A stretch of DNA of 64,000 bases from a virus. Below, one piece after another: positions 2,086-44,206 of this stretch (its first letter is position 1; every line of letters begins with the position of its first letter). Position numbers and translations under genes: made by a program. The notes beneath the pieces are model-generated. The model worked only from the letters and a program-made list of their open reading frames with translations, searched no databases and was not told the DNA's origin. Where the stretch lies: the IMG/VR virus record IMGVR_UViG_3300033233_000033, positions 5,351 through 69,350 of that record. One strand, 5' to 3'.

Positions 2086-2751
2086 TTATAATGATAATTT
2101 TTTAATTGGCGCTGCATCTGGAGCGTCTCCTTTAGTATCTGCTGTAGCAACAGGTTCTTCCATGGATTTTGCTCTGTTTTTAATCTCAGTAGGAGTCATT
2201 ACTAAATTACATGGATTTTCCATTAATTCAGCATAAGTAGCATATTTAGGTAATTGTAAATATTTACCCAATTTAGAGTCAGATACAACCTTTAATCTCA
2301 ATAATGGGCTTTCGATACCAAGTGTACCTTTAACTGCTTTTTCAAATTGTTCGTAAATTACATCATTAAAGAATTTACAACCTTTTCTACTTTTTAAATC
2401 TTTCTTGATTTCATCCATAGATTCGTAACCATCTGTAGGATCAATTACTGCATCTGGATTAAACAATTTTGCTAAAGAAGTTAACTGAGAAATTTGCTCA
2501 ATAAAGTTATTGAATATCAAATCATCTGATAATTCTGGGTTGAAGTTGAAGTAAGAAAATTCAGACACTGCAACAACTACACCTTTAGCGTCAAATTGTT
2601 GGAAAGTCATGTATGTATTTTTAGGTACAACTTCACCTTCTCTGATACGTTCTTCGTTGGTAATAGAAATCAATCTTACGTTGTCATTGATACCGAATTT
2701 TAATCCTGCTCTTACAGGTTTTTCTGCTAATAGTTTTCTTAAAAAAGCCAT
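2086..2751 (-). CDS. Replication-module protein (possible SSB), paralog of 3008..3694
   Basis: Aligns with 3008..3694 (FGINDN/FGVHEN, SYFN/SWFN, KVVSDSKLGKYLQLPKY/KVVFDSNGKYLQQPKY). Lies between primase and RecT. The SSB role is inferred from position only. Confidence 0.55.
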   Translation of the reverse strand: MAFLRKLLAEKPVRAGLKFGINDNVRLISITNEERIREGEVVPKNTYMTFQQFDAKGVVVAVSEFSYFNFNPELSDDLIFNNFIEQISQLTSLAKLFNPDAVIDPTDGYESMDEIKKDLKSRKGCKFFNDVIYEQFEKAVKGTLGIESPLLRLKVVSDSKLGKYLQLPKYATYAELMENPCNLVMTPTEIKNRAKSMEEPVATADTKGDAPDAAPIKKLSL

Positions 2752-4414: not shown

Positions 4415-5473
4415 TTAATGTAGTTGTCTCAGAATTTCTAATTTTTCTTCAAATTTATCTTTTTCAGTTGGATGAGGGGCTTCCGCAAAATATCCGCACT
4501 CACCTACAAAAAATAAACCTAAAGTTTGATTTTCTAAACCTTCTTGATTTGACACTACAGTTAAAGTTCTAAATCTATTCTTACCATTAATAAACAAAGA
4601 TTCTACTGGATATCCATTATATTTAAGATTATTTTCATTAAAAGGATTGTATAAAACAATGCCTAAATCTGCAATATTATTAAATACGCCTAAATCTTTG
4701 TAAGTTGGTTCACTGTCCTTATAACTACGTGTATAAGTGTTTCTAGTAGGTACATTAACAACGTTTATTAAGTTATATTTATTTTTAAGTAAATCTAAAT
4801 ACTCACAAAATTTTGACTTTAATAAATCAGGGGTTAATAAACCAAATCCATCATGCTCAGTCATTAAATACTCAACATTGTCAATAATTACAAAAGTATA
4901 TTGACCTGCGTGTTTATCATCTAGTTTAAAAGTATGATCGTATTCATTTTCATGACCAATAGTTTTCATATAACCCTCAACAGTATCATATATATCACTG
5001 GGAGTTCTTCTACCATTATACAATAAAAGATGGTTATCTTCTAAGTCATTAAAAAATTCACATGCAGACAATACTTGAGCTTCTGTTTCTTCATCTAAAT
5101 CATATAATTTACCTATACCATTGTTCAATGTTGGTATATCAATTAGTACGTTATATTCTAATTTTAAATAAAGACAAAGCCATTTTTGTAATTTAACTCT
5201 AACATTACGACGCATATTAAAGTACAAAAATTTTAATTTAGGTCTTTCTTCTTCTGGTAAACTAGTCCACCATTTAAATACATTGATAAAGTAGTTATAA
5301 TCGATAAAACTAGATTTACCTGAATTTGGCCTACCGCCAATAATGATATTTTTCTGGGGTTCTATAAAGTTTGTAACTTTGCTTAGTTTAGCCAAAGGTA
5401 TTGGTATACCTGAAAACCCTTTATTTTTATTAATGTTAAGGGGCTTAACAACACATTCTTTAAATAAACTCAT
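4415..5473 (-). CDS. DnaB-like (SF4) replicative helicase
   Basis: GIPIPL..L, Walker A GGRPNSGKS, Walker B VIIDN, ADL.IVL.NP; replication context. Confidence 0.75.
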   Translation of the reverse strand: MSLFKECVVKPLNINKNKGFSGIPIPLAKLSKVTNFIEPQKNIIIGGRPNSGKSSFIDYNYFINVFKWWTSLPEEERPKLKFLYFNMRRNVRVKLQKWLCLYLKLEYNVLIDIPTLNNGIGKLYDLDEETEAQVLSACEFFNDLEDNHLLLYNGRRTPSDIYDTVEGYMKTIGHENEYDHTFKLDDKHAGQYTFVIIDNVEYLMTEHDGFGLLTPDLLKSKFCEYLDLLKNKYNLINVVNVPTRNTYTRSYKDSEPTYKDLGVFNNIADLGIVLYNPFNENNLKYNGYPVESLFINGKNRFRTLTVVSNQEGLENQTLGLFFVGECGYFAEAPHPTEKDKFEEKLEILRQLH

Positions 5474-6211: not shown

Positions 6212-8704
6212 TTATTTCTCCCATACGTTTGTTATTTCCCCTTCAGCTTTCAATAATTCATTTCCTAAAATAAACTTTGCGGCATCTTCCATTTTATCCA
6301 CTACAATCTTTAAACCTTCTTCAGCAAAATCTTTTCTACATAAGTATCTGATTTCATCATGAAGAGGTAATGCAAATTTTAGTTTATTGCTTAATTCATT
6401 GTCCTCTATATATTTTTTAATTAAACATATAGCATACTTTGTCATATTGGCACTAGAACCTTGTATAGGGAAATTTTGAGCCGCTCTTTTTATAGAGTTT
6501 GCTTCTGAATTATCTCTTGGCTTACTAAAGAATCTTATTCTTTTAATTGGATCTGGAGTTTTAATATACCTATCTTGTACTGCTTGTTCCGCACATTGCG
6601 TTAAATAAGAATAAATATTTGGAAAAGTACCATAAAACCTGTCAATAAGATCATCTGCAGTAGTAATATCAGATAAAAATCTTTTTTGCTTATGCTCTTG
6701 CTTTAAAAAGTCATGCATAGACGTATTAGATGCTCTACCTTTATAATATGTCCTACAATAAAGATCATAACCTTCATGATTTTGTTCTAAATAAACTTCT
6801 ACTTCTTCCGGGTATTTATCAATTAAATCTTTTGTTGTAGCAGGAATATTTAAACTTTCACCTAAACCTACAGCAGATTTACCGTAAAATAAACCAAAAC
6901 TTGTTGTCTTAGAACTGTTTCTAAGTTTCTGTAAAGTCTTATCTTCCGGTTTACCTTTAGGTTTAGGCTCTCCACCTAGTTTTTTCCATTCATCAGGGAA
7001 CATTAATGAAGCACAAGTACTATGAAAATCACAACCTTCAGCAATTGCATCCATTAAAGATGTTTCATTACAAAATGTGGCAGCTACAACAGCTTCTTGA
7101 GAAGCATAATCCGCTCCCACTACTAACCATTCATGTCCATCATCTCTAGTTCCTGTTTCAGGATTATTGGGTTTAAAAGGATTTCTATACACTGCTTGTC
7201 CTGGTAATAATTGTAATTTATCCATACTACTACGACCTGTGTTAAGAATTTGTTTAAAACCAGATATTCTAAACATACCGTCTGGATTAATAGCATTTAA
7301 GAAATTTTGGCCATAAGAAGTTGCCATCTTTGATGCTTTGTTATATTCTTTCAATTTATAAGCCAAAGGATGGTCAATTTTGGAAATAACTTCTTTGTTG
7401 GTACTTTCTATATCTGGCTTAATACACATAAACAAATGTAATTTTTGTATAGGTGAATTTAAATTAATTAAAACTGTACCTGCAGGCGTAAATACTTCTA
7501 ATTCTTGTAAAAGATCTTTATAATTAGCAATAAAATAAGATTCTACTGATTCAAAATTTTTAGATAAAATATTTTTTAATACATTTAATTCATCAAATCT
7601 TTCAAAAGTTTCATCTTGTAGCCTTATCTTAATATAATCATGGTAATCTTTTACTTTAGCATGTTCACTAATTTCTGGAAATAATGTTCTAATAATAGTC
7701 TTTTTTAATTTTGGAGACGACCATTTAAAATCGTATTTATTTTCCAATTGTACAAAATGACTAACCATTTGATAATGTATTAAATCAACATCACTTTTAC
7801 TTCCTTCATATTGTTCTCCAGCGGCTAAAATAAAATCTGGTAAGTGTTCTTTTAATAAATTGTGAAAATCCTCTTTGGTACGTTCTACTTCACTTTGCTG
7901 AAAATGCATAGTTTTAGACCATTCTTCAGAATTTAAATAAAGGTTTTCACACATACCATCTCCATAAGATCTGATAAGGGCACACTCTAAATCAACAGCG
8001 TTATTTAGTTTTAGTTTAGTTATTTCAAGCATCATTTTTTCATAGATACTACCTAACACTGTAACATCTATAGCAGCGTATTTAATTTGCTCAACAGTTA
8101 ATGGAGAACCATTAAAACTTGTTTGTTCGGCTTTGGATAAGTCTTGATTTGAATATCTTTCAACACAACCAACTAAACTATGATAACCTTTAGGTAAATC
8201 TTCTCCTACTTCTAAACCAGTATTTAGTATTTGTGATATAAGAAAAGTATCTCTAATCTTGTCAATGTCAACATTAAAACACCATTTAATAGTAGTATAA
8301 TCAAATAAACCATTGTGTATAAGTTTTTCTCTTTTAGAAGAGAACACTGTATGTAATGCGTTTAACATATCTACACTGGCATTTGGTATATCAAATAACC
8401 ATTGATGTTCTCCTTCTAAATCACCTATTTGAACTACATAACATTCTCTTTTTTGAGGAATACGTTGTTCATTTTCATCTAATTCTTCATGAAAATCTTT
8501 GTTAATACCTTTTAAAAAACCTTTCCAACCATACACACCTACAACAATATTTGTCTCAGTATCTAATTGTATAGGGCCTCTATAAGTATTCCACCAATAA
8601 TTAAAGTTTTTTAAATTATCTTCAATGCTAACATGGAATGTTGCATTATTACTTATATTATTGATATCATATTGATCAATTCTATTAGTTATTAGCGTAA
8701 CCAT
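6212..8704 (-). CDS. polA: DNA polymerase, family A, with 3'-5' exonuclease
   Basis: Exo motifs LDTET, HNGLFD, YAAID; motif A ADYASQE; motif B KTTSFGLFYG; NFPIQGSSA; motif C HDE. The start is more likely the ATG at 8704 than 8764. Confidence 0.95.
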   Translation of the reverse strand: MVTLITNRIDQYDINNISNNATFHVSIEDNLKNFNYWWNTYRGPIQLDTETNIVVGVYGWKGFLKGINKDFHEELDENEQRIPQKRECYVVQIGDLEGEHQWLFDIPNASVDMLNALHTVFSSKREKLIHNGLFDYTTIKWCFNVDIDKIRDTFLISQILNTGLEVGEDLPKGYHSLVGCVERYSNQDLSKAEQTSFNGSPLTVEQIKYAAIDVTVLGSIYEKMMLEITKLKLNNAVDLECALIRSYGDGMCENLYLNSEEWSKTMHFQQSEVERTKEDFHNLLKEHLPDFILAAGEQYEGSKSDVDLIHYQMVSHFVQLENKYDFKWSSPKLKKTIIRTLFPEISEHAKVKDYHDYIKIRLQDETFERFDELNVLKNILSKNFESVESYFIANYKDLLQELEVFTPAGTVLINLNSPIQKLHLFMCIKPDIESTNKEVISKIDHPLAYKLKEYNKASKMATSYGQNFLNAINPDGMFRISGFKQILNTGRSSMDKLQLLPGQAVYRNPFKPNNPETGTRDDGHEWLVVGADYASQEAVVAATFCNETSLMDAIAEGCDFHSTCASLMFPDEWKKLGGEPKPKGKPEDKTLQKLRNSSKTTSFGLFYGKSAVGLGESLNIPATTKDLIDKYPEEVEVYLEQNHEGYDLYCRTYYKGRASNTSMHDFLKQEHKQKRFLSDITTADDLIDRFYGTFPNIYSYLTQCAEQAVQDRYIKTPDPIKRIRFFSKPRDNSEANSIKRAAQNFPIQGSSANMTKYAICLIKKYIEDNELSNKLKFALPLHDEIRYLCRKDFAEEGLKIVVDKMEDAAKFILGNELLKAEGEITNVWEK

Positions 8705-27435: not shown

Positions 27436-27507
27436 ATTTTGCAGGAATCCCACCTGCTATACTCTGTTGTTATCCGCAGAGTTTAGAGCTACTTATTCAC
27501 CCCCGTG

Positions 27508-27578
27508 TAGTTACGATAGGATTCGAACCTACATACTCCAACTTAAAAGGCTGGGCTTTAACTTTAAGCTACATAACC
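27508..27578 (-). tRNA. tRNA-Lys (anticodon UUU)
   Basis: GGTTATG/CGTAACT-A; D-arm GCTT..AAGC (D-loop lacks GG); CCAGC-CTTTTAA-GTTGG; GTAGG-TTCGAAT-CCTAT; CCA not encoded. Confidence 0.85.
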
Positions 27579-31217: not shown

Positions 31218-31361
31218 TTTATTTATATTTGTTTTAAATTTTAAAAATAAAAAAGCCCTCTACTCTTTGGTTATACTATCTTCAAGGGCTTTATAAGAAT
31301 TAATTCGCCTAGTCTCATCAGAGATAAATTTTAACGTCTCCTAGGTGACGGATTTTATTCG

Positions 31362-31478
31362 TGGTCAAAGGCGGACTCGAACCACCGACCTATCGGCAGG
31401 AATCATATAATACTCTCAGGTCATGACCTCCCTACCCTCTTATACCCACCAATCGCTCTGCCACTGAGCTATTTGACA
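31362..31478 (-). ncRNA. tRNA-like RNA with anticodon loop replaced by a ~44-nt insert
   Basis: GTCAAA/TTTGAC; TAGCTCAGTGGCAGAGC D-arm; extended stem ATTGGTGGG/CCTGCCGAT; AGGTC; GGTGG-TTCGAGT-CCGCC. Confidence 0.75.
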
Positions 31479-31500: not shown

Positions 31501-31613
31501 TAGCCAAGGTAGGATTCGAACCTACATTTATACCACCATATAACTTACTGATTTTACAGACGAGCATGCACCTACTCTCGTTATATGTGCCTTACCAATT
31601 CAGCCACTTGACT
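31501..31613 (-). ncRNA. tRNA-like RNA with anticodon loop replaced by a ~35-nt insert
   Basis: AGTCAAG/CTTGGCT-A; TGGCTGAATTGGTAAGGC D-arm; 8-bp CATATAAC/GTTATATG stem; GTAGG-TTCGAAT-CCTAC. Confidence 0.75.
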
Positions 31614-31847: not shown

Positions 31848-31954
31848 TGGTGAGAATAGGATTCGAACCTATACAGGGTGTCATCCCTCGGAGTATCTAA
31901 AGTTTTGACTTACTTATTATCGAACTCCTACATTACCAATTCTGCCACCTCACC
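31848..31954 (-). ncRNA. Leu-type tRNA-like RNA with 29-nt anticodon loop
   Basis: GGTGAGG/TCTCACC-A; GGCAGAATTGGTAATGT D-arm; GGAGT/ACTCC stem; long variable arm AGGG-ATGACA-CCCT; ATAGG-TTCGAAT-CCTAT. Confidence 0.75.
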
Positions 31955-41065: not shown

Positions 41066-41143
41066 AACTTTATTTTGTGGTGAAACACATCTTTCACTAA
41101 GCTTCTGTGATGTGTAAATACCGTGTAGCTCCGGCTTATTGTT

Positions 41144-43301
41144 TTACTCTACTACTGGCTGTAATATCAACGGATATGCTAATATTACTTTGTAAGTGCC
41201 TGGTATATCAGGGCACTTATGAATCTCCGTCTCCGGAGTCAGTGCATCAAAAAATTGACGATATGTCAAATGATGCAACTTTGGACCTGATTCGAAAATC
41301 ATTAGATCGCATCCTTTGTTTATTTCTTCATCGTAAGAGGCATCCTCTAACACCTCCATGAGGTGTACAATTGAACCTACTACAAATTCATCAGGTAATA
41401 CCTGCATAAACACTCTTCTTTTGTTTAAAGTAATCATGGCGTTTGTTTTTATTGGTTATATTTACTAATTTTATCTTTTTCCAAATTTACCTTGAGTCTT
41501 TCCGTGAGAATCTCAGTAGAAAGAGCAAACCCTGGTAAATTTGCACTCAACCTGCCATCTTCTCTCATAATAGCGGTTACACCAGAGTTCGTTATTTTCA
41601 TACCAGCTGGGAGTTCTCCCTTAGCTACCCTGAGCAGAATTGCTCTAGCTTCGTACTCATTAAATATGAATCTACCTACTCTGAATTTTGGTGCTGCTAT
41701 TGCACCTGTTAAATCTTGTCTTTTCATGGTGTTTTATTTAATTAATTATTATTATTTATTTTATAGTATACTTAGTATAAATTCATCAGTAGGAAATTCT
41801 TGTGAAAAAGTCCTTGGTTGACCTTCTATTCTAAGAAAGAAAGATCTACCGCCATATGACTCAATTACCACATTTGGTATTTTGGGGAAAATAACCCAAG
41901 GGGAATCTTCACAATACGTTACGTTGTTGATTATTCTCTTATTTCTCTTCATTGGATAGGTAGAAGCTAACGTCAATATATAATCGTCGTTTACATAATT
42001 ACCATTATCGTCTATTTGTTCATAAAAGAATAATGAACCGCATATTACTTTTAAATATCTTGGTTTTTGTAATTCCTGAACTCCCTCATAATTTGAGGTA
42101 ATAGCCGCAACCATTTCTTCTGATAACGGTATATGATCACAATCATTAACTGAATGGTTATACCTACTTATAGATTTGTAGTATCTACACTTATAATTTA
42201 CTTGTAAAAATATTATAGACTTGGAATAGCTGTCATTTCGATTTGCTGTTGTTGAAGGCAATGTGTTTACATCCTTCACAAGTAAGCAAAAGATATCTAA
42301 TCCTAATGCTCTGTAATCAAAATCCTGGAAAGTGCACGGCAACTCGCCGTTTCTGTAATATTTTTTCATCGCTTTTATTTCGCGGTGATCGGTTATTATT
42401 TGATAGCCTTCTTTTCTAGCTACTTCTAACGGGTCTAAAATTTCTTTAGGTTTTGGTGTTAAAATCAAACCTAAAAAGGTTTTAGCTAATTCAATAGTGT
42501 GATTGATACACCATTGATCAGACAAAGCTTTATCTAAGCATTTCCTTGTAAAAGCTAAATTTTGGAAAAAATCTATTAACATATCTACGTCTACTTGATG
42601 CGCAAACTCAAATGTCTTTAGAATTTTGTCCGCAAGGCTTTCACCAAACTTCTTCTTCAGCTTTTTTCTAATTTCTACTCTACTTATTGGAGTAGTTAAC
42701 ACTGCTGTTTCCATTTTTTAATTTTTTTGTAGTTTAAAGTTTCTGAACAACCTATCGAAAGTTTCATCTTCAATTGACACTCTTTCCTCTATGAGCTCTA
42801 TAGAAGTAATATTCTTTTGGCTTTTTTTACAAGCAGAATTATTTAATCTGTCTGCAAAAGTTTCAGTTTTGTTTACCCACATAGCTGAAGAGTGCCCATC
42901 TTCGTAATGGATATAATACAATTTGTTCATGGCTTTTATATTTATTTATTAATAATCAAGGCTTTCACTAAGCTATTGTGCCTTGTATTTCCCATACAGC
43001 TCTGGGTAATTACCTAGTCTACAATGTACTTGTAGTTAGGATCTTGGACATTGAAGTCCAAAGAGTCAATCCATTGACCCTCTCTAAGTGCCTCATCTAA
43101 CACGGAGCATGGCACCAGACCACCTCCTAGTGATAAATTCCATATCAGATCTAAATCTGAGTGAGAATCCACCTGTAAGAAAATGGCACCTCCTGTGCCT
43201 AGCTTGAGGTCTACTAATAAGATACCTGTCGCTCCAGGTTTGTTGATAAGCTCAATGCTGAAACATTCAACAATTAGTTTGTTCGGGAATAAACTTGTCA
43301 T
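41144..43301 (-). other. Five hypothetical early-region ORFs (41144, 41449, 41761, 42718, 43014)
   Basis: Co-oriented ORFs, most with (A/G)CCATG starts. Confidence 0.65.
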
Positions 43302-43828
43302 GGTGTATTGTGATGCGTTTAACCTATACTACGCTAATCAAAGGTAATTGCATTAAATAAAGTGTGAACCAGGCGCACACAACACGCACAAGCCGGAGCC
43401 CGACCAAGGCAGACGCAGTCTAGCCGAACTGATTTGATTCCGATTCGATTTGTAACTAGTAAGCAGCAAGGCCACCACCAGCAGGACAGGCAGCAAGGCC
43501 CAGCAAGACTAAAAAGCCAAACCGACCCCCCAGCCACGCAGGAGACAACAACCCCCCAACGAGCAGCAAAACGCCACAACGTAGACCGAAACCCCGGCGA
43601 CGAACCAGCGGGGCCCATATAGACTAAGGCTCCCACTACCCGTATTTTTCAATATACATATTCTACTCCCTCTATTTCTACTCCCCCCCCTTTTGTATAC
43701 AACTTCCACTTTTCTACTCCTCACCTTCTCTCACAAACACGGGGGGCCTTTTCTACAGGTACCCATATATATATAAACAGTGCGGGTTTTTACTCTACTT
43801 TTACACTCTTTATACTTAACTTCACACT

Positions 43829-44206
43829 ATGATATTATATACAGAGAGAATAGAGGACAATACTTATGAGTATCCATCTTACGAACATAAACATCACTTG
43901 TTATTAGAAGAAAGTGATTTTGCTCTTACAGCTGAGGAAGTAGATAGTAGATTTACTATAGGTGAAAGGGTACATTATCTTTACATACCTAGAGCTTTAT
44001 TTATACGTTTTGTAGAAGAGCCACACGTGTTTAAGGGGTTGAAATATCGAACTACAGGTATGATGGGTGGCCAAATCTGGAATGCGCAAATACATATTAC
44101 CTACACTACCAAACCTAAAGATGCTCTAGAAAAAATATTTGGTGTAGGTAGGGAGTTAGTAGAAAATAGAGTTCCGGAATCTTTACGCCATATAAAAATC
44201 CAGTAA
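43829..44206 (+). CDS. Hypothetical protein, first gene of the plus-strand arm
   Basis: Begins MILYT. Confidence 0.6.
   Translation: MILYTERIEDNTYEYPSYEHKHHLLLEESDFALTAEEVDSRFTIGERVHYLYIPRALFIRFVEEPHVFKGLKYRTTGMMGGQIWNAQIHITYTTKPKDALEKIFGVGRELVENRVPESLRHIKIQ

Follow-up and report, generated by a model that had tools for sequence, protein, structure and literature searches.

A pseudoknotted two-hairpin RNA, apparently undescribed, near the start of co-directional gene blocks in phages with crAss-like gene content

The pistol ribozyme (RF02679), whose cleavage site is the GU within GGU, has its strands in the order P1 5′, pseudoknot 5′, P1 3′, linker, P2 5′, pseudoknot 3′, P2 3′. The guanidine-II (mini-ykkC) riboswitch consists of two hairpins with ACGR tetraloops that kiss across a linker of varying length. 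The put sites of phage HK022 and the nut/boxB sites of lambdoid phages are small RNAs of one or two hairpins near the start of early operons, which are present in one to few copies per phage, act in cis whatever gene follows, and are not known to be tandem or repeated within one operon. The hairpin of the N4 early promoters has a stem of 5–7 base pairs (bp) and a loop of 3 nucleotides (nt), and it forms on the template strand. The crAss-like phages are among the most abundant gut viruses and are widespread in water and sediment, and to our knowledge almost nothing is known of how their early transcription is controlled. Here we describe a motif that occurs twice in a 64,000-nt stretch of viral DNA (the window; positions 5,351 to 69,350 of IMG/VR record IMGVR_UViG_3300033233_000033). 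It is a real, well-supported, and apparently undescribed RNA family. Its topology is pistol-like, and there is a strong case for regarding it as a candidate new ribozyme or regulatory RNA.

The two copies were first pointed out, on the minus strand, in an earlier note made from the letters of the window. Both lie where the note had placed them (Table 1), with the correction that P1 of copy A reaches one G.U pair further, to 41135 and not 41134. The 13-mer AGCTTAGTGAAAG was found exactly twice in the window and twice in the full 69,350-base record. When two to three mismatches were included there were 27 matches in all (25 inexact) against 31 expected from shuffles; inexact matches are therefore no commoner than in shuffled sequence, and only the exact pair counts. 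In copy B, the second loop is made up of a closing C-G pair, an unpaired ACA, the pseudoknot strand AUAGCUU, and an unpaired AGUGAAA. Positions 1–7 of its loop 1 pair with positions 5–11 of loop 2, forming a duplex of −7.9 kcal/mol, an energy matched or beaten by 23 of 1000 shuffles of loop 2. In copy A the AC of loop 1 is matched by GA in loop 2, which gives a C-G pair where copy B has U-A. Each copy folds as two hairpins, with an unremarkable single-sequence folding energy (z −0.9 to −1.6). Since these energies are not significant, the case for a structured RNA rests on homologues. The observation itself was confirmed: the two copies are real and go far past what chance would give.

In viral contigs, a scan for CACANNAGCTTAGTGAAAG gave eight loci, seven of which show both hairpins with wholly different stem sequences. 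With a covariance model built from nine sequences (R1, from MAFFT alignment A2), seven other phage records showed a single strong copy apiece and the record of the window showed two, and the eighth record (G008) gave only a partial loop match; weak matches in G002 and G006 (E 0.16–0.23) were judged to be chance. Looser patterns yielded 52 loci in metagenome contigs, with 35 model matches below E 1e-6, and 11 loci in genome contigs, with six strong matches that were all on contigs of metagenome-assembled genomes (MAGs). More copies came from looser-pattern scans of viral contigs, while the matches in L008, L026, L238, and L249 were considered chance. In total, 43 distinct copies make up the final alignment (A6); they come from phage, metagenome, and MAG contigs, 37 sources in all. 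The earlier note would have been refuted had no further covarying homologues come to light, and this is clearly not what was found.

The near-invariance of GAGCU, ACA, and AGCUUAGUGAAAG in this set is partly forced by the search patterns, and several scans bear on how far. With the six bases before AGCTT left free, the true members recovered, namely two identical new loci (L025 and L034) and recurring known ones, carry (C/A)ACA at that place. Freeing the last four bases brought in AAAA, AACA, and AACC, and freeing AGU gave one true variant (AGA) among 57 new matches. Three copies were found by the model only: L063:3547 (AGCUG), L229:9055 (AGCUA), and L064:2739 (AAAA). A scan for compensated variants of the central AGCU pairs returned at least 80 loci, with no true variant among the matches listed; a look-alike in L120/L171 without a partner loop is probably chance. 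Among INPHARED phages, none resembles the region by blastn, and with a 56-nt motif query none holds the loop, the only matches being of 21–23 nt to Listeria phages (E 4) and away from loop 2. Model R2 found nothing in crAss001, phi14:2, or MT835470.1 (best E 0.8–1.2).

The aligned copies describe a fold of about 55 nt, in which a P1 hairpin (4–6 bp, 8-nt loop) is followed by a short A/U-rich linker of 2–18 nt and a P2 hairpin (6–7 bp, 19-nt loop). The earlier note had remarked that the stems of the two copies differ and yet both pair. This holds across the 43 members of A6, in which all five P1 pairs and all seven P2 pairs change on both sides. Standard pairs fill 93.1% of the P1 and P2 cells, compared with 63.9% in shuffles, and the covariation score is 0.731, compared with 0.167; none of 500 shuffles was as high on either measure. 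When the partners were slid by one to three columns, pairing fell to 32–43%. The pair counts are biased towards the structure in alignments A3, A5, and A6, which were fitted to the model, but the MAFFT alignment of the first nine sequences (A2), made without model fitting, shows the same pairing picture. RNAalifold independently predicts P1 and P2, including the C-G pair that closes loop 2. This closing pair covaries as well (C-G in 34 copies, U.G in 3, U-A in 2, G-C in 1, and unpaired in 3).

The two loops join in a kissing helix of 6–7 bp, between positions 1–7 of loop 1 and 5–11 of loop 2, with duplex energies from −5.5 to −10 kcal/mol. The pairing of GAGCT with AGCTT proposed from the window alone is supported and is two pairs longer than stated, one of the added pairs being covariant. 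Its four central pairs (A-U, G-C, C-G, and U-A) show no variation in 43 members. The pair after them is G.U, A-U, or U-A in 25 copies and mismatched in 18, and the last pair (columns 14:50) is U-A in 24, C-G in 17, and U.G in 2, so that it is unpaired in 0 of 43. The terminal G.U was lost in two of the copies found by the model only and may not be a real pair. Around the helix, unpaired bases are near-constant: ACA at loop 2 positions 2–4, AG(U/a)GAA(A/c) at loop 2 positions 12–18, and, in loop 1, the final base, mostly A. Where the search patterns did not fix them, these bases still hardly change, and the conservation of the loops, first noted in two copies, is borne out across the homologues.

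The kind of mismatch tolerated in the helices indicates the strand on which they form. In the inner stems, G.U was found 17 times and A.C once (376 cells), and in the loop–loop helix G.U was found 59 times and A.C twice. An excess of G.U over A.C of this size shows that the fold is selected on the strand that is sense to the flanking genes, and the simplest reading is that the motif acts as RNA.

We compared the motif with described families. At gathering thresholds, an Rfam search of the whole window returned tRNAs only. On the 2.2-kb stretch around the copies, with E up to 10, there was weak microRNA and small-RNA noise, in which MIR5225 (E 1.7) overlaps 11 nt of copy A; on a 91-nt stretch at the same limit no ribozyme model matched. 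The best Rfam alignment on those 91 nt was Flavivirus_DB (RF00525), at 12.9 bits against a gathering threshold of 41.5 (E 1.4). This element also has a hairpin loop with AGCUGUA and a downstream pseudoknot partner, but it belongs to a eukaryotic RNA virus, and the match was treated as chance. The Rfam check suggested in the earlier note therefore gave no family for the motif.

The closest likeness is to the pistol ribozyme. The motif has the same strand order; its P1 loop, likewise of 8 nt, forms a pseudoknot of about 6 bp with a strand that P2 encloses, an A/U-rich linker follows P1, and the total length is near 50–65 nt. Like pistol, it is found in phages. It differs in that the P3 hairpin is absent, its place being taken in 43 of 43 members by only 8 nt (AGUGAAAG), and in that the consensus GGU 5′ of the P2 3′ strand is replaced by AAAG, AAAA, AACA, or AACC. 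The conserved bases differ too, CACA and AGUGAAAG in the motif against UUAGG and GCG...GGU in the Rfam pistol consensus, and the central pseudoknot pairs of the motif are invariant. The pistol model (gathering threshold 34.5 bits) did not match the motif at E up to 10 on either the 2.2 kb or the 91 nt. Because P3 and GGU are absent, we did not file the motif as pistol. With RAGATH-1 (RF03152) it shares a 5′ hairpin, an A-rich linker, a stem enclosing a purine-rich core with GAAA, and a phage context that includes a sub-threshold RAGATH-1 copy in the same window. It has only the GAAA of the hammerhead group, without the CUGAUGA box, stem III, or cleavage triplet, and none of the Rfam hammerhead models matches it.

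Other systems resemble the motif in design or in placement. Like guanidine-II it has two conserved-loop hairpins with covarying stems, a variable linker, and kissing loops, but the loops are GAGCUNNA and a 19-nt loop in place of ACGR tetraloops, Rfam gives no match, and there is no shared class of downstream gene. With the put and nut sites, compared by description only, it shares a promoter-proximal place in an early operon and the sense direction (20 of 23 loci); those sites need the host RNA polymerase for their function, whereas the operons with the motif are probably read by a phage virion polymerase. The PeSL elements of T4-type phages are likewise repeated regulatory motifs that flank small early cassettes of varying content, but they combine a duplex promoter with a simple stem–loop and are lineage-specific, whereas the motif is a knotted RNA kept across distant phages. 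The N4-type promoter hairpin differs in loop size, the motif having loops of 8 and 19 nt, and in strand, the G.U excess placing the selected fold on the sense strand. The generic marks of a riboswitch, shared flanking families and terminator enrichment, were not found. The accessible literature gave no description of the motif, although two catalogues, each with thousands of unnamed candidate RNAs, might include it in their supplements (PMC8040213, PMC10690425).

Judged by their gene content, the carriers that were checked are crAss-like phages. The window phage encodes a DNA polymerase, a Dda-like helicase, a terminase, and a portal, and its terminase is nearest to those of crAss-like phages (23–27% identity). 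Two complete carriers (G002 and G003, 94–99 kb) have giant open reading frames (ORFs) of 4,500 and 1,700–2,000 amino acids (aa) and a block layout typical of crAss-like phages; in both, the motif opens a co-directional block of about 40 kb. The carriers come from human gut, lake, sediment, and other metagenomes, and the window phage occurs in 13 sequencing runs, all of DNA, from lake water, sediment, and the subsurface. The six MAG contigs with the motif are labelled Prevotella, Bacteroides, Bacteroidota, uncultured (two), and Gammaproteobacteria (one). The hosts are probably Bacteroidota. Each phage has one to three copies, and the complete genomes have one. Two or three copies lie within 0.3–2.2 kb in the window, L092, L229, L248, and L064, and copies stand in tandem in L248 and in L063, which has a degenerate third copy in addition.

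The position of the motif was read from gene maps drawn with our own crude ORF caller (ORFs of at least 70 aa), which is not a gene finder. In 20 of 23 informative loci (the 20 being the window, L003, L004, L006, L007, L009, L010, L025, L062, L063, L079, L099, G003 (L005), L228, L229, L236, L237, L248, L278, and L104), the first copy lies zero to three genes past a divergent strand switch. This is the start of a long co-directional block in which small ORFs are followed by replication genes. Within the window, the strands switch near 43.75 kb, and copy B and copy A lie 0.75 kb and 2.6 kb into the minus-strand block. The minimum of the cumulative GC skew of the window is at 43897, and GC skew tracks gene orientation everywhere. 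Both copies start 7–8 nt past the stop codon of a small ORF. The next ATG follows 20 nt after the end of copy A (at 41065) and 27 nt after that of copy B (at 42930), the distances given in the earlier note, whose placing of the copies in leaders is upheld. Among 35 copies, 14 have an ATG 12–31 nt downstream; many others are 40–560 nt from the next called ORF or at operon ends, as in L060 and L099. The leader downstream of the motif is A/T-rich and carries no Shine–Dalgarno motif. With covarying stems, conserved loops, a pseudoknot, a leader position, and no Rfam family, the motif agrees with what the earlier note had proposed, an unrecognised structured RNA.

Table 1. Positions of the two motif copies, their parts, and neighbouring features in the window (loops given as DNA and as RNA).
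Feature	Position	Strand	Details
Copy B, whole motif (P1, loop 1, linker, P2 with 19-nt loop 2)	42957..43006	-	R1: 72.5 bits, E 2.9e-15 in own genome; also 1.1e-14
Copy B P1	43006-43003 with 42994-42991	-	CCCA / UGGG
Copy B loop 1	43002-42995	-	GAGCTGTA (DNA), GAGCUGUA (RNA)
Copy B linker	42990-42986	-	AAAUA
Copy B P2	42985-42981 with 42961-42957	-	CAAGG / CCUUG
Copy B loop 2	42980-42962	-	CACAATAGCTTAGTGAAAG (DNA), CACAAUAGCUUAGUGAAAG (RNA)
Copy A, whole motif	41085..41135	-	R1: 66.3 bits, E 9e-14
Copy A P1	41135-41132 with 41123-41120	-	GCCG / CGGU; outermost pair G.U
Copy A loop 1	41131-41124	-	GAGCTACA (DNA), GAGCUACA (RNA)
Copy A linker	41119-41116	-	AUUU
Copy A P2	41115-41110 with 41090-41085	-	ACACAU / AUGUGU
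Copy A loop 2	41109-41091	-	CACAGAAGCTTAGTGAAAG (DNA), CACAGAAGCUUAGUGAAAG (RNA)
Divergent junction	43725..43828	.	Minus block (small genes, then DNA polymerase, helicase) against plus block (terminase, portal)
95-aa ORF	43014..43301	-	TAG stop 7 nt before copy B P1; second called gene past the strand switch; no Pfam or PHROG family
Four-gene cassette (70, 317, 92, 97 aa)	41144..42930	-	Between copy B and copy A; no Pfam or PHROG families
228-aa ORF	40379..41065	-	Starts 20 nt past copy A; C-terminal cytidine/dCMP deaminase domain (PF00383 1.9e-13; phrog_174 5.3e-12)

The motif is sense to the genes that flank it and is tied to no gene family. Across lineages, no protein family is common to the flanking ORFs (blastp at 1e-4, 40 motif sites, 681 ORFs), and the flanking ORFs have no Pfam or PHROG matches except for the deaminase domain of 40379–41065. 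The label nucleotidyltransferase-deaminase given to this gene in the earlier note stands for its deaminase half (residues ~139–221), on Pfam and PHROGs evidence. No model in these libraries matches the N-terminal 135 residues, and the nucleotidyltransferase half comes from a G-S...D-L-D motif of that type read in the translation. In L010, a homologue of the gene comes after the only motif copy. The window has four genes between or after the copies, L092 has one, and L010 has none; as this content differs among relatives, the copies bracket exchangeable cassettes. The neighbouring proteins are unrelated and the loops near-invariant, so that conservation is far higher in the RNA loops than in the surrounding proteins, which points to a conserved partner. 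A search for a second conserved word within −700/+300 nt of the motif gave only A/T-rich low-complexity 9-mers, and a Bacteroidetes-type TAnnTTTG box was not seen at a fixed upstream distance. A link to TROVE and Y-RNA, prompted by a review, was dropped because PF05731 is absent from G000–G004.

The motif stands at the start of operons, in sense orientation and whatever gene follows, and its exposed bases are conserved to an extreme degree, all of which suggests a cis-acting signal with a conserved macromolecular reader. We tentatively favour, at somewhat less than an even chance, a cis-acting leader RNA that would be bound by the transcribing polymerase or an associated protein and would control read-through into the early/replication block. 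The motif would be transcribed as part of an operon that runs from the divergent junction through the small early genes into the replication genes, and its compact loop-kissing knot displays the invariant unpaired ACA and AG(U)GAA. The putative reader could be the transcribing RNA polymerase itself, as with HK022 put, or a protein that belongs to the phage or is associated with the polymerase, for which nut/boxB is the model. Its binding would decide how much of the early/replication block is transcribed or expressed beyond the first few genes, and extra copies would re-arm the signal ahead of inserted gene cassettes. We infer this mechanism as a whole; what is observed is the fold with its strand and conservation, its position, and its independence of the neighbouring genes. 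A Crassvirales review (PMC10136315) describes an injected virion RNA polymerase as transcribing the regulatory and replication modules of crAss-like phages and likens their transcription to that of phage N4.

Several observations weigh against such a leader signal. In L060 the motif is at the convergent end of an operon with seven co-directional genes upstream, and in L097 and L105 there is no strand switch among the two to three upstream genes visible. Terminator-like hairpins are not enriched within 150 nt past the motif (1 of 53 pattern matches, compared with 4% of 1060 control windows). Operons with several copies (the window, L064, L092, and L229) and tandem copies (L063 and L248) are not known from put and nut sites. 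The cultured crAss-like phages crAss001 and phi14:2 lack the motif, and such transcription therefore does not depend on it in general. Finally, a ribozyme reading agrees at least as naturally with the pistol-like topology, with the true pistol ribozyme of L079, and with the hammerhead-like element of the window phage.

A ribozyme is indeed the main rival reading, though we think it rather unlikely. The motif would then be a new class of small self-cleaving RNA, the eleventh or so, with a minimal pistol-like knot without P3 that cuts the polycistronic early transcript where cassettes meet and so separates the first genes or cassettes from those downstream; P1, the pseudoknot, and P2 would be the scaffold and the invariant ACA and AGUGAA strands the active site. 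Consistent with this are the strand order, 8-nt P1 loop, and similar A/U-rich linker of the Rfam pistol consensus, a length of about 55 nt with invariant unpaired purine-rich strands, and the copy number, tandem copies, and indifference to neighbouring genes. The pistol in L079 (4850–4914, plus strand; 43.8 bits against the gathering threshold) shares the strand of the motif and is found 2.4 kb farther downstream, and the window phage has its RAGATH-1-like element at 31276–31351 (35.6 bits, below gathering). These points are set against the lack of any Rfam ribozyme match even at E 10 on 91 nt, the missing P3 and the AAAG in place of GGU, and the invariance of the central pseudoknot pairs in 43 members, and cleavage would leave the start-of-operon position without an obvious reason. 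A riboswitch-like aptamer, through which a small molecule reporting the state of the host would gate the early/replication operon, seems improbable to us. Its size, pseudoknot, and invariant junction bases do resemble small pseudoknotted aptamers, the 5′-leader position and the tandem and multiple copies would suit one, and two kissing hairpins with a variable linker recall guanidine-II. However, the downstream genes belong to no common family, and there is no recognisable expression platform: terminators are not enriched, and the terminator stem of L080 has no complementarity to the motif. In L097 a DUF805 cis-regulatory RNA stands between the motif and the gene, and some copies (L060 and L099) are at operon ends.

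The motif might also act as DNA, either as an N4-like hairpin early promoter for an injected virion RNA polymerase or as part of a transcription-primed origin at the divergent junction, and this we regard as very unlikely. One to three copies that all point the same way, lie together where the early block begins, and flank gene cassettes, often with an ATG 12–31 nt downstream (14 of 35 copies), are what such an element could look like; the cumulative GC-skew minimum at the junction and the N4 comparison mentioned above agree with it. However, the ratios of G.U to A.C (17:1 in the stems and 59:2 in the loop–loop helix) indicate the sense, non-template strand, whereas N4 hairpins form on the template. 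Conserved blocks at variable spacing (linker of 2–18 nt) are ill-suited to a duplex promoter, a covarying loop–loop helix is unusual for DNA, and the GC skew merely follows gene orientation. Another role as RNA is hardly more credible, whether as a 5′ stabiliser or ribosome recruiter in Bacteroidota lacking Shine–Dalgarno pairing, as an endoribonuclease site, or as a decoy for host defence. The frequent ATG at 12–31 nt, the A/T-rich downstream leader without a Shine–Dalgarno motif, and the probable Bacteroidota hosts (from the MAG labels) fit a role of this kind, but many copies are 40–560 nt from the next ORF or at operon ends, and the benefit would be limited to one to three genes per phage.

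No neighbouring protein comes close to the conservation seen in the loops of this compact RNA, which is placed where the early/replication operon begins and deserves an Rfam entry. If the polymerase of the phage or of the host binds it, it would offer a handle on early regulation and would extend cis-acting antitermination, in a new form, beyond the lambdoid phages; if it cleaves itself, it would represent a new class of ribozyme whose small size suits structural studies and applications as a tool. Either prediction is directly testable with a 60-nt transcript.

Other structured RNAs were found near the motif in several contigs. In L097 a DUF805 RNA (RF03081, 74.7 bits; 2419–2483, plus strand) begins 4 nt past the motif (2359–2414) and runs into the start codon of the next gene. 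It is a separate element directly 3′ of the motif, and in L089 the motif is followed by sequence similar to this stretch. The human-gut contig L025 has a DUF2693-FD RNA (6266–6314, plus strand) 180 nt upstream of the motif. In L096, a MAG contig labelled Prevotella, the domain V/VI end of a group II intron (5050–5140, minus strand) is 115 nt upstream. Both the DUF805 and the DUF2693-FD motif are described in PMC5737381.

In the window, three Rfam tRNA matches of 40–42 bits and 107–117 nt (31848–31954, 31501–31613, and 31362–31478, minus strand) have 28–55 extra bases in the region of the anticodon arm, resembling an intron or insert. ARAGORN calls none of the three and finds only a tRNA-Lys at 27507–27578. 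The RAGATH-1-hammerhead-like element, on the minus strand, starts 10 nt past the 3′ end of an insert-bearing tRNA. It has an intact CUGAUGAG box and a poor stem III (gathering threshold 56.3 bits; E 1.4e-4 on 271 nt), and it may be a ribozyme involved in tRNA processing or the decayed remains of one.

Among terminator-like sites in the region, the one at 37318..37289 (minus strand) is the strongest; its 13-bp stem precedes T9, and it lies within the same co-directional block, some 4 kb downstream from copy A. In L062 and L080, a homologous 22-codon ORF (MKSF...) ends 7 nt before P1, with a terminator-like hairpin ahead of it and, in L080, another after it (GGGGC-ATTC-GCCCC and a T-run); this layout is attenuator-like. 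L082 and L099 have in common an element of about 75 nt located 10–90 nt downstream of the motif, in which a 10-bp hairpin is followed by CTCGTTATTGAG, a 12-mer that is also present upstream of the motif in L228 and L237. GC-rich non-coding blocks occur in these AT-rich phages about 380–500 nt upstream of the motif in L005 and L009, and within the 330 nt upstream in L228 and L237. Rfam returned nothing for the blocks of L005 and L009. Within each pair of relatives the blocks are partly conserved, with runs of C and G and, common to L005 and L009, TCCCAATCAG..TCCTTCAG, and they may be further structured RNAs at the divergent junction.

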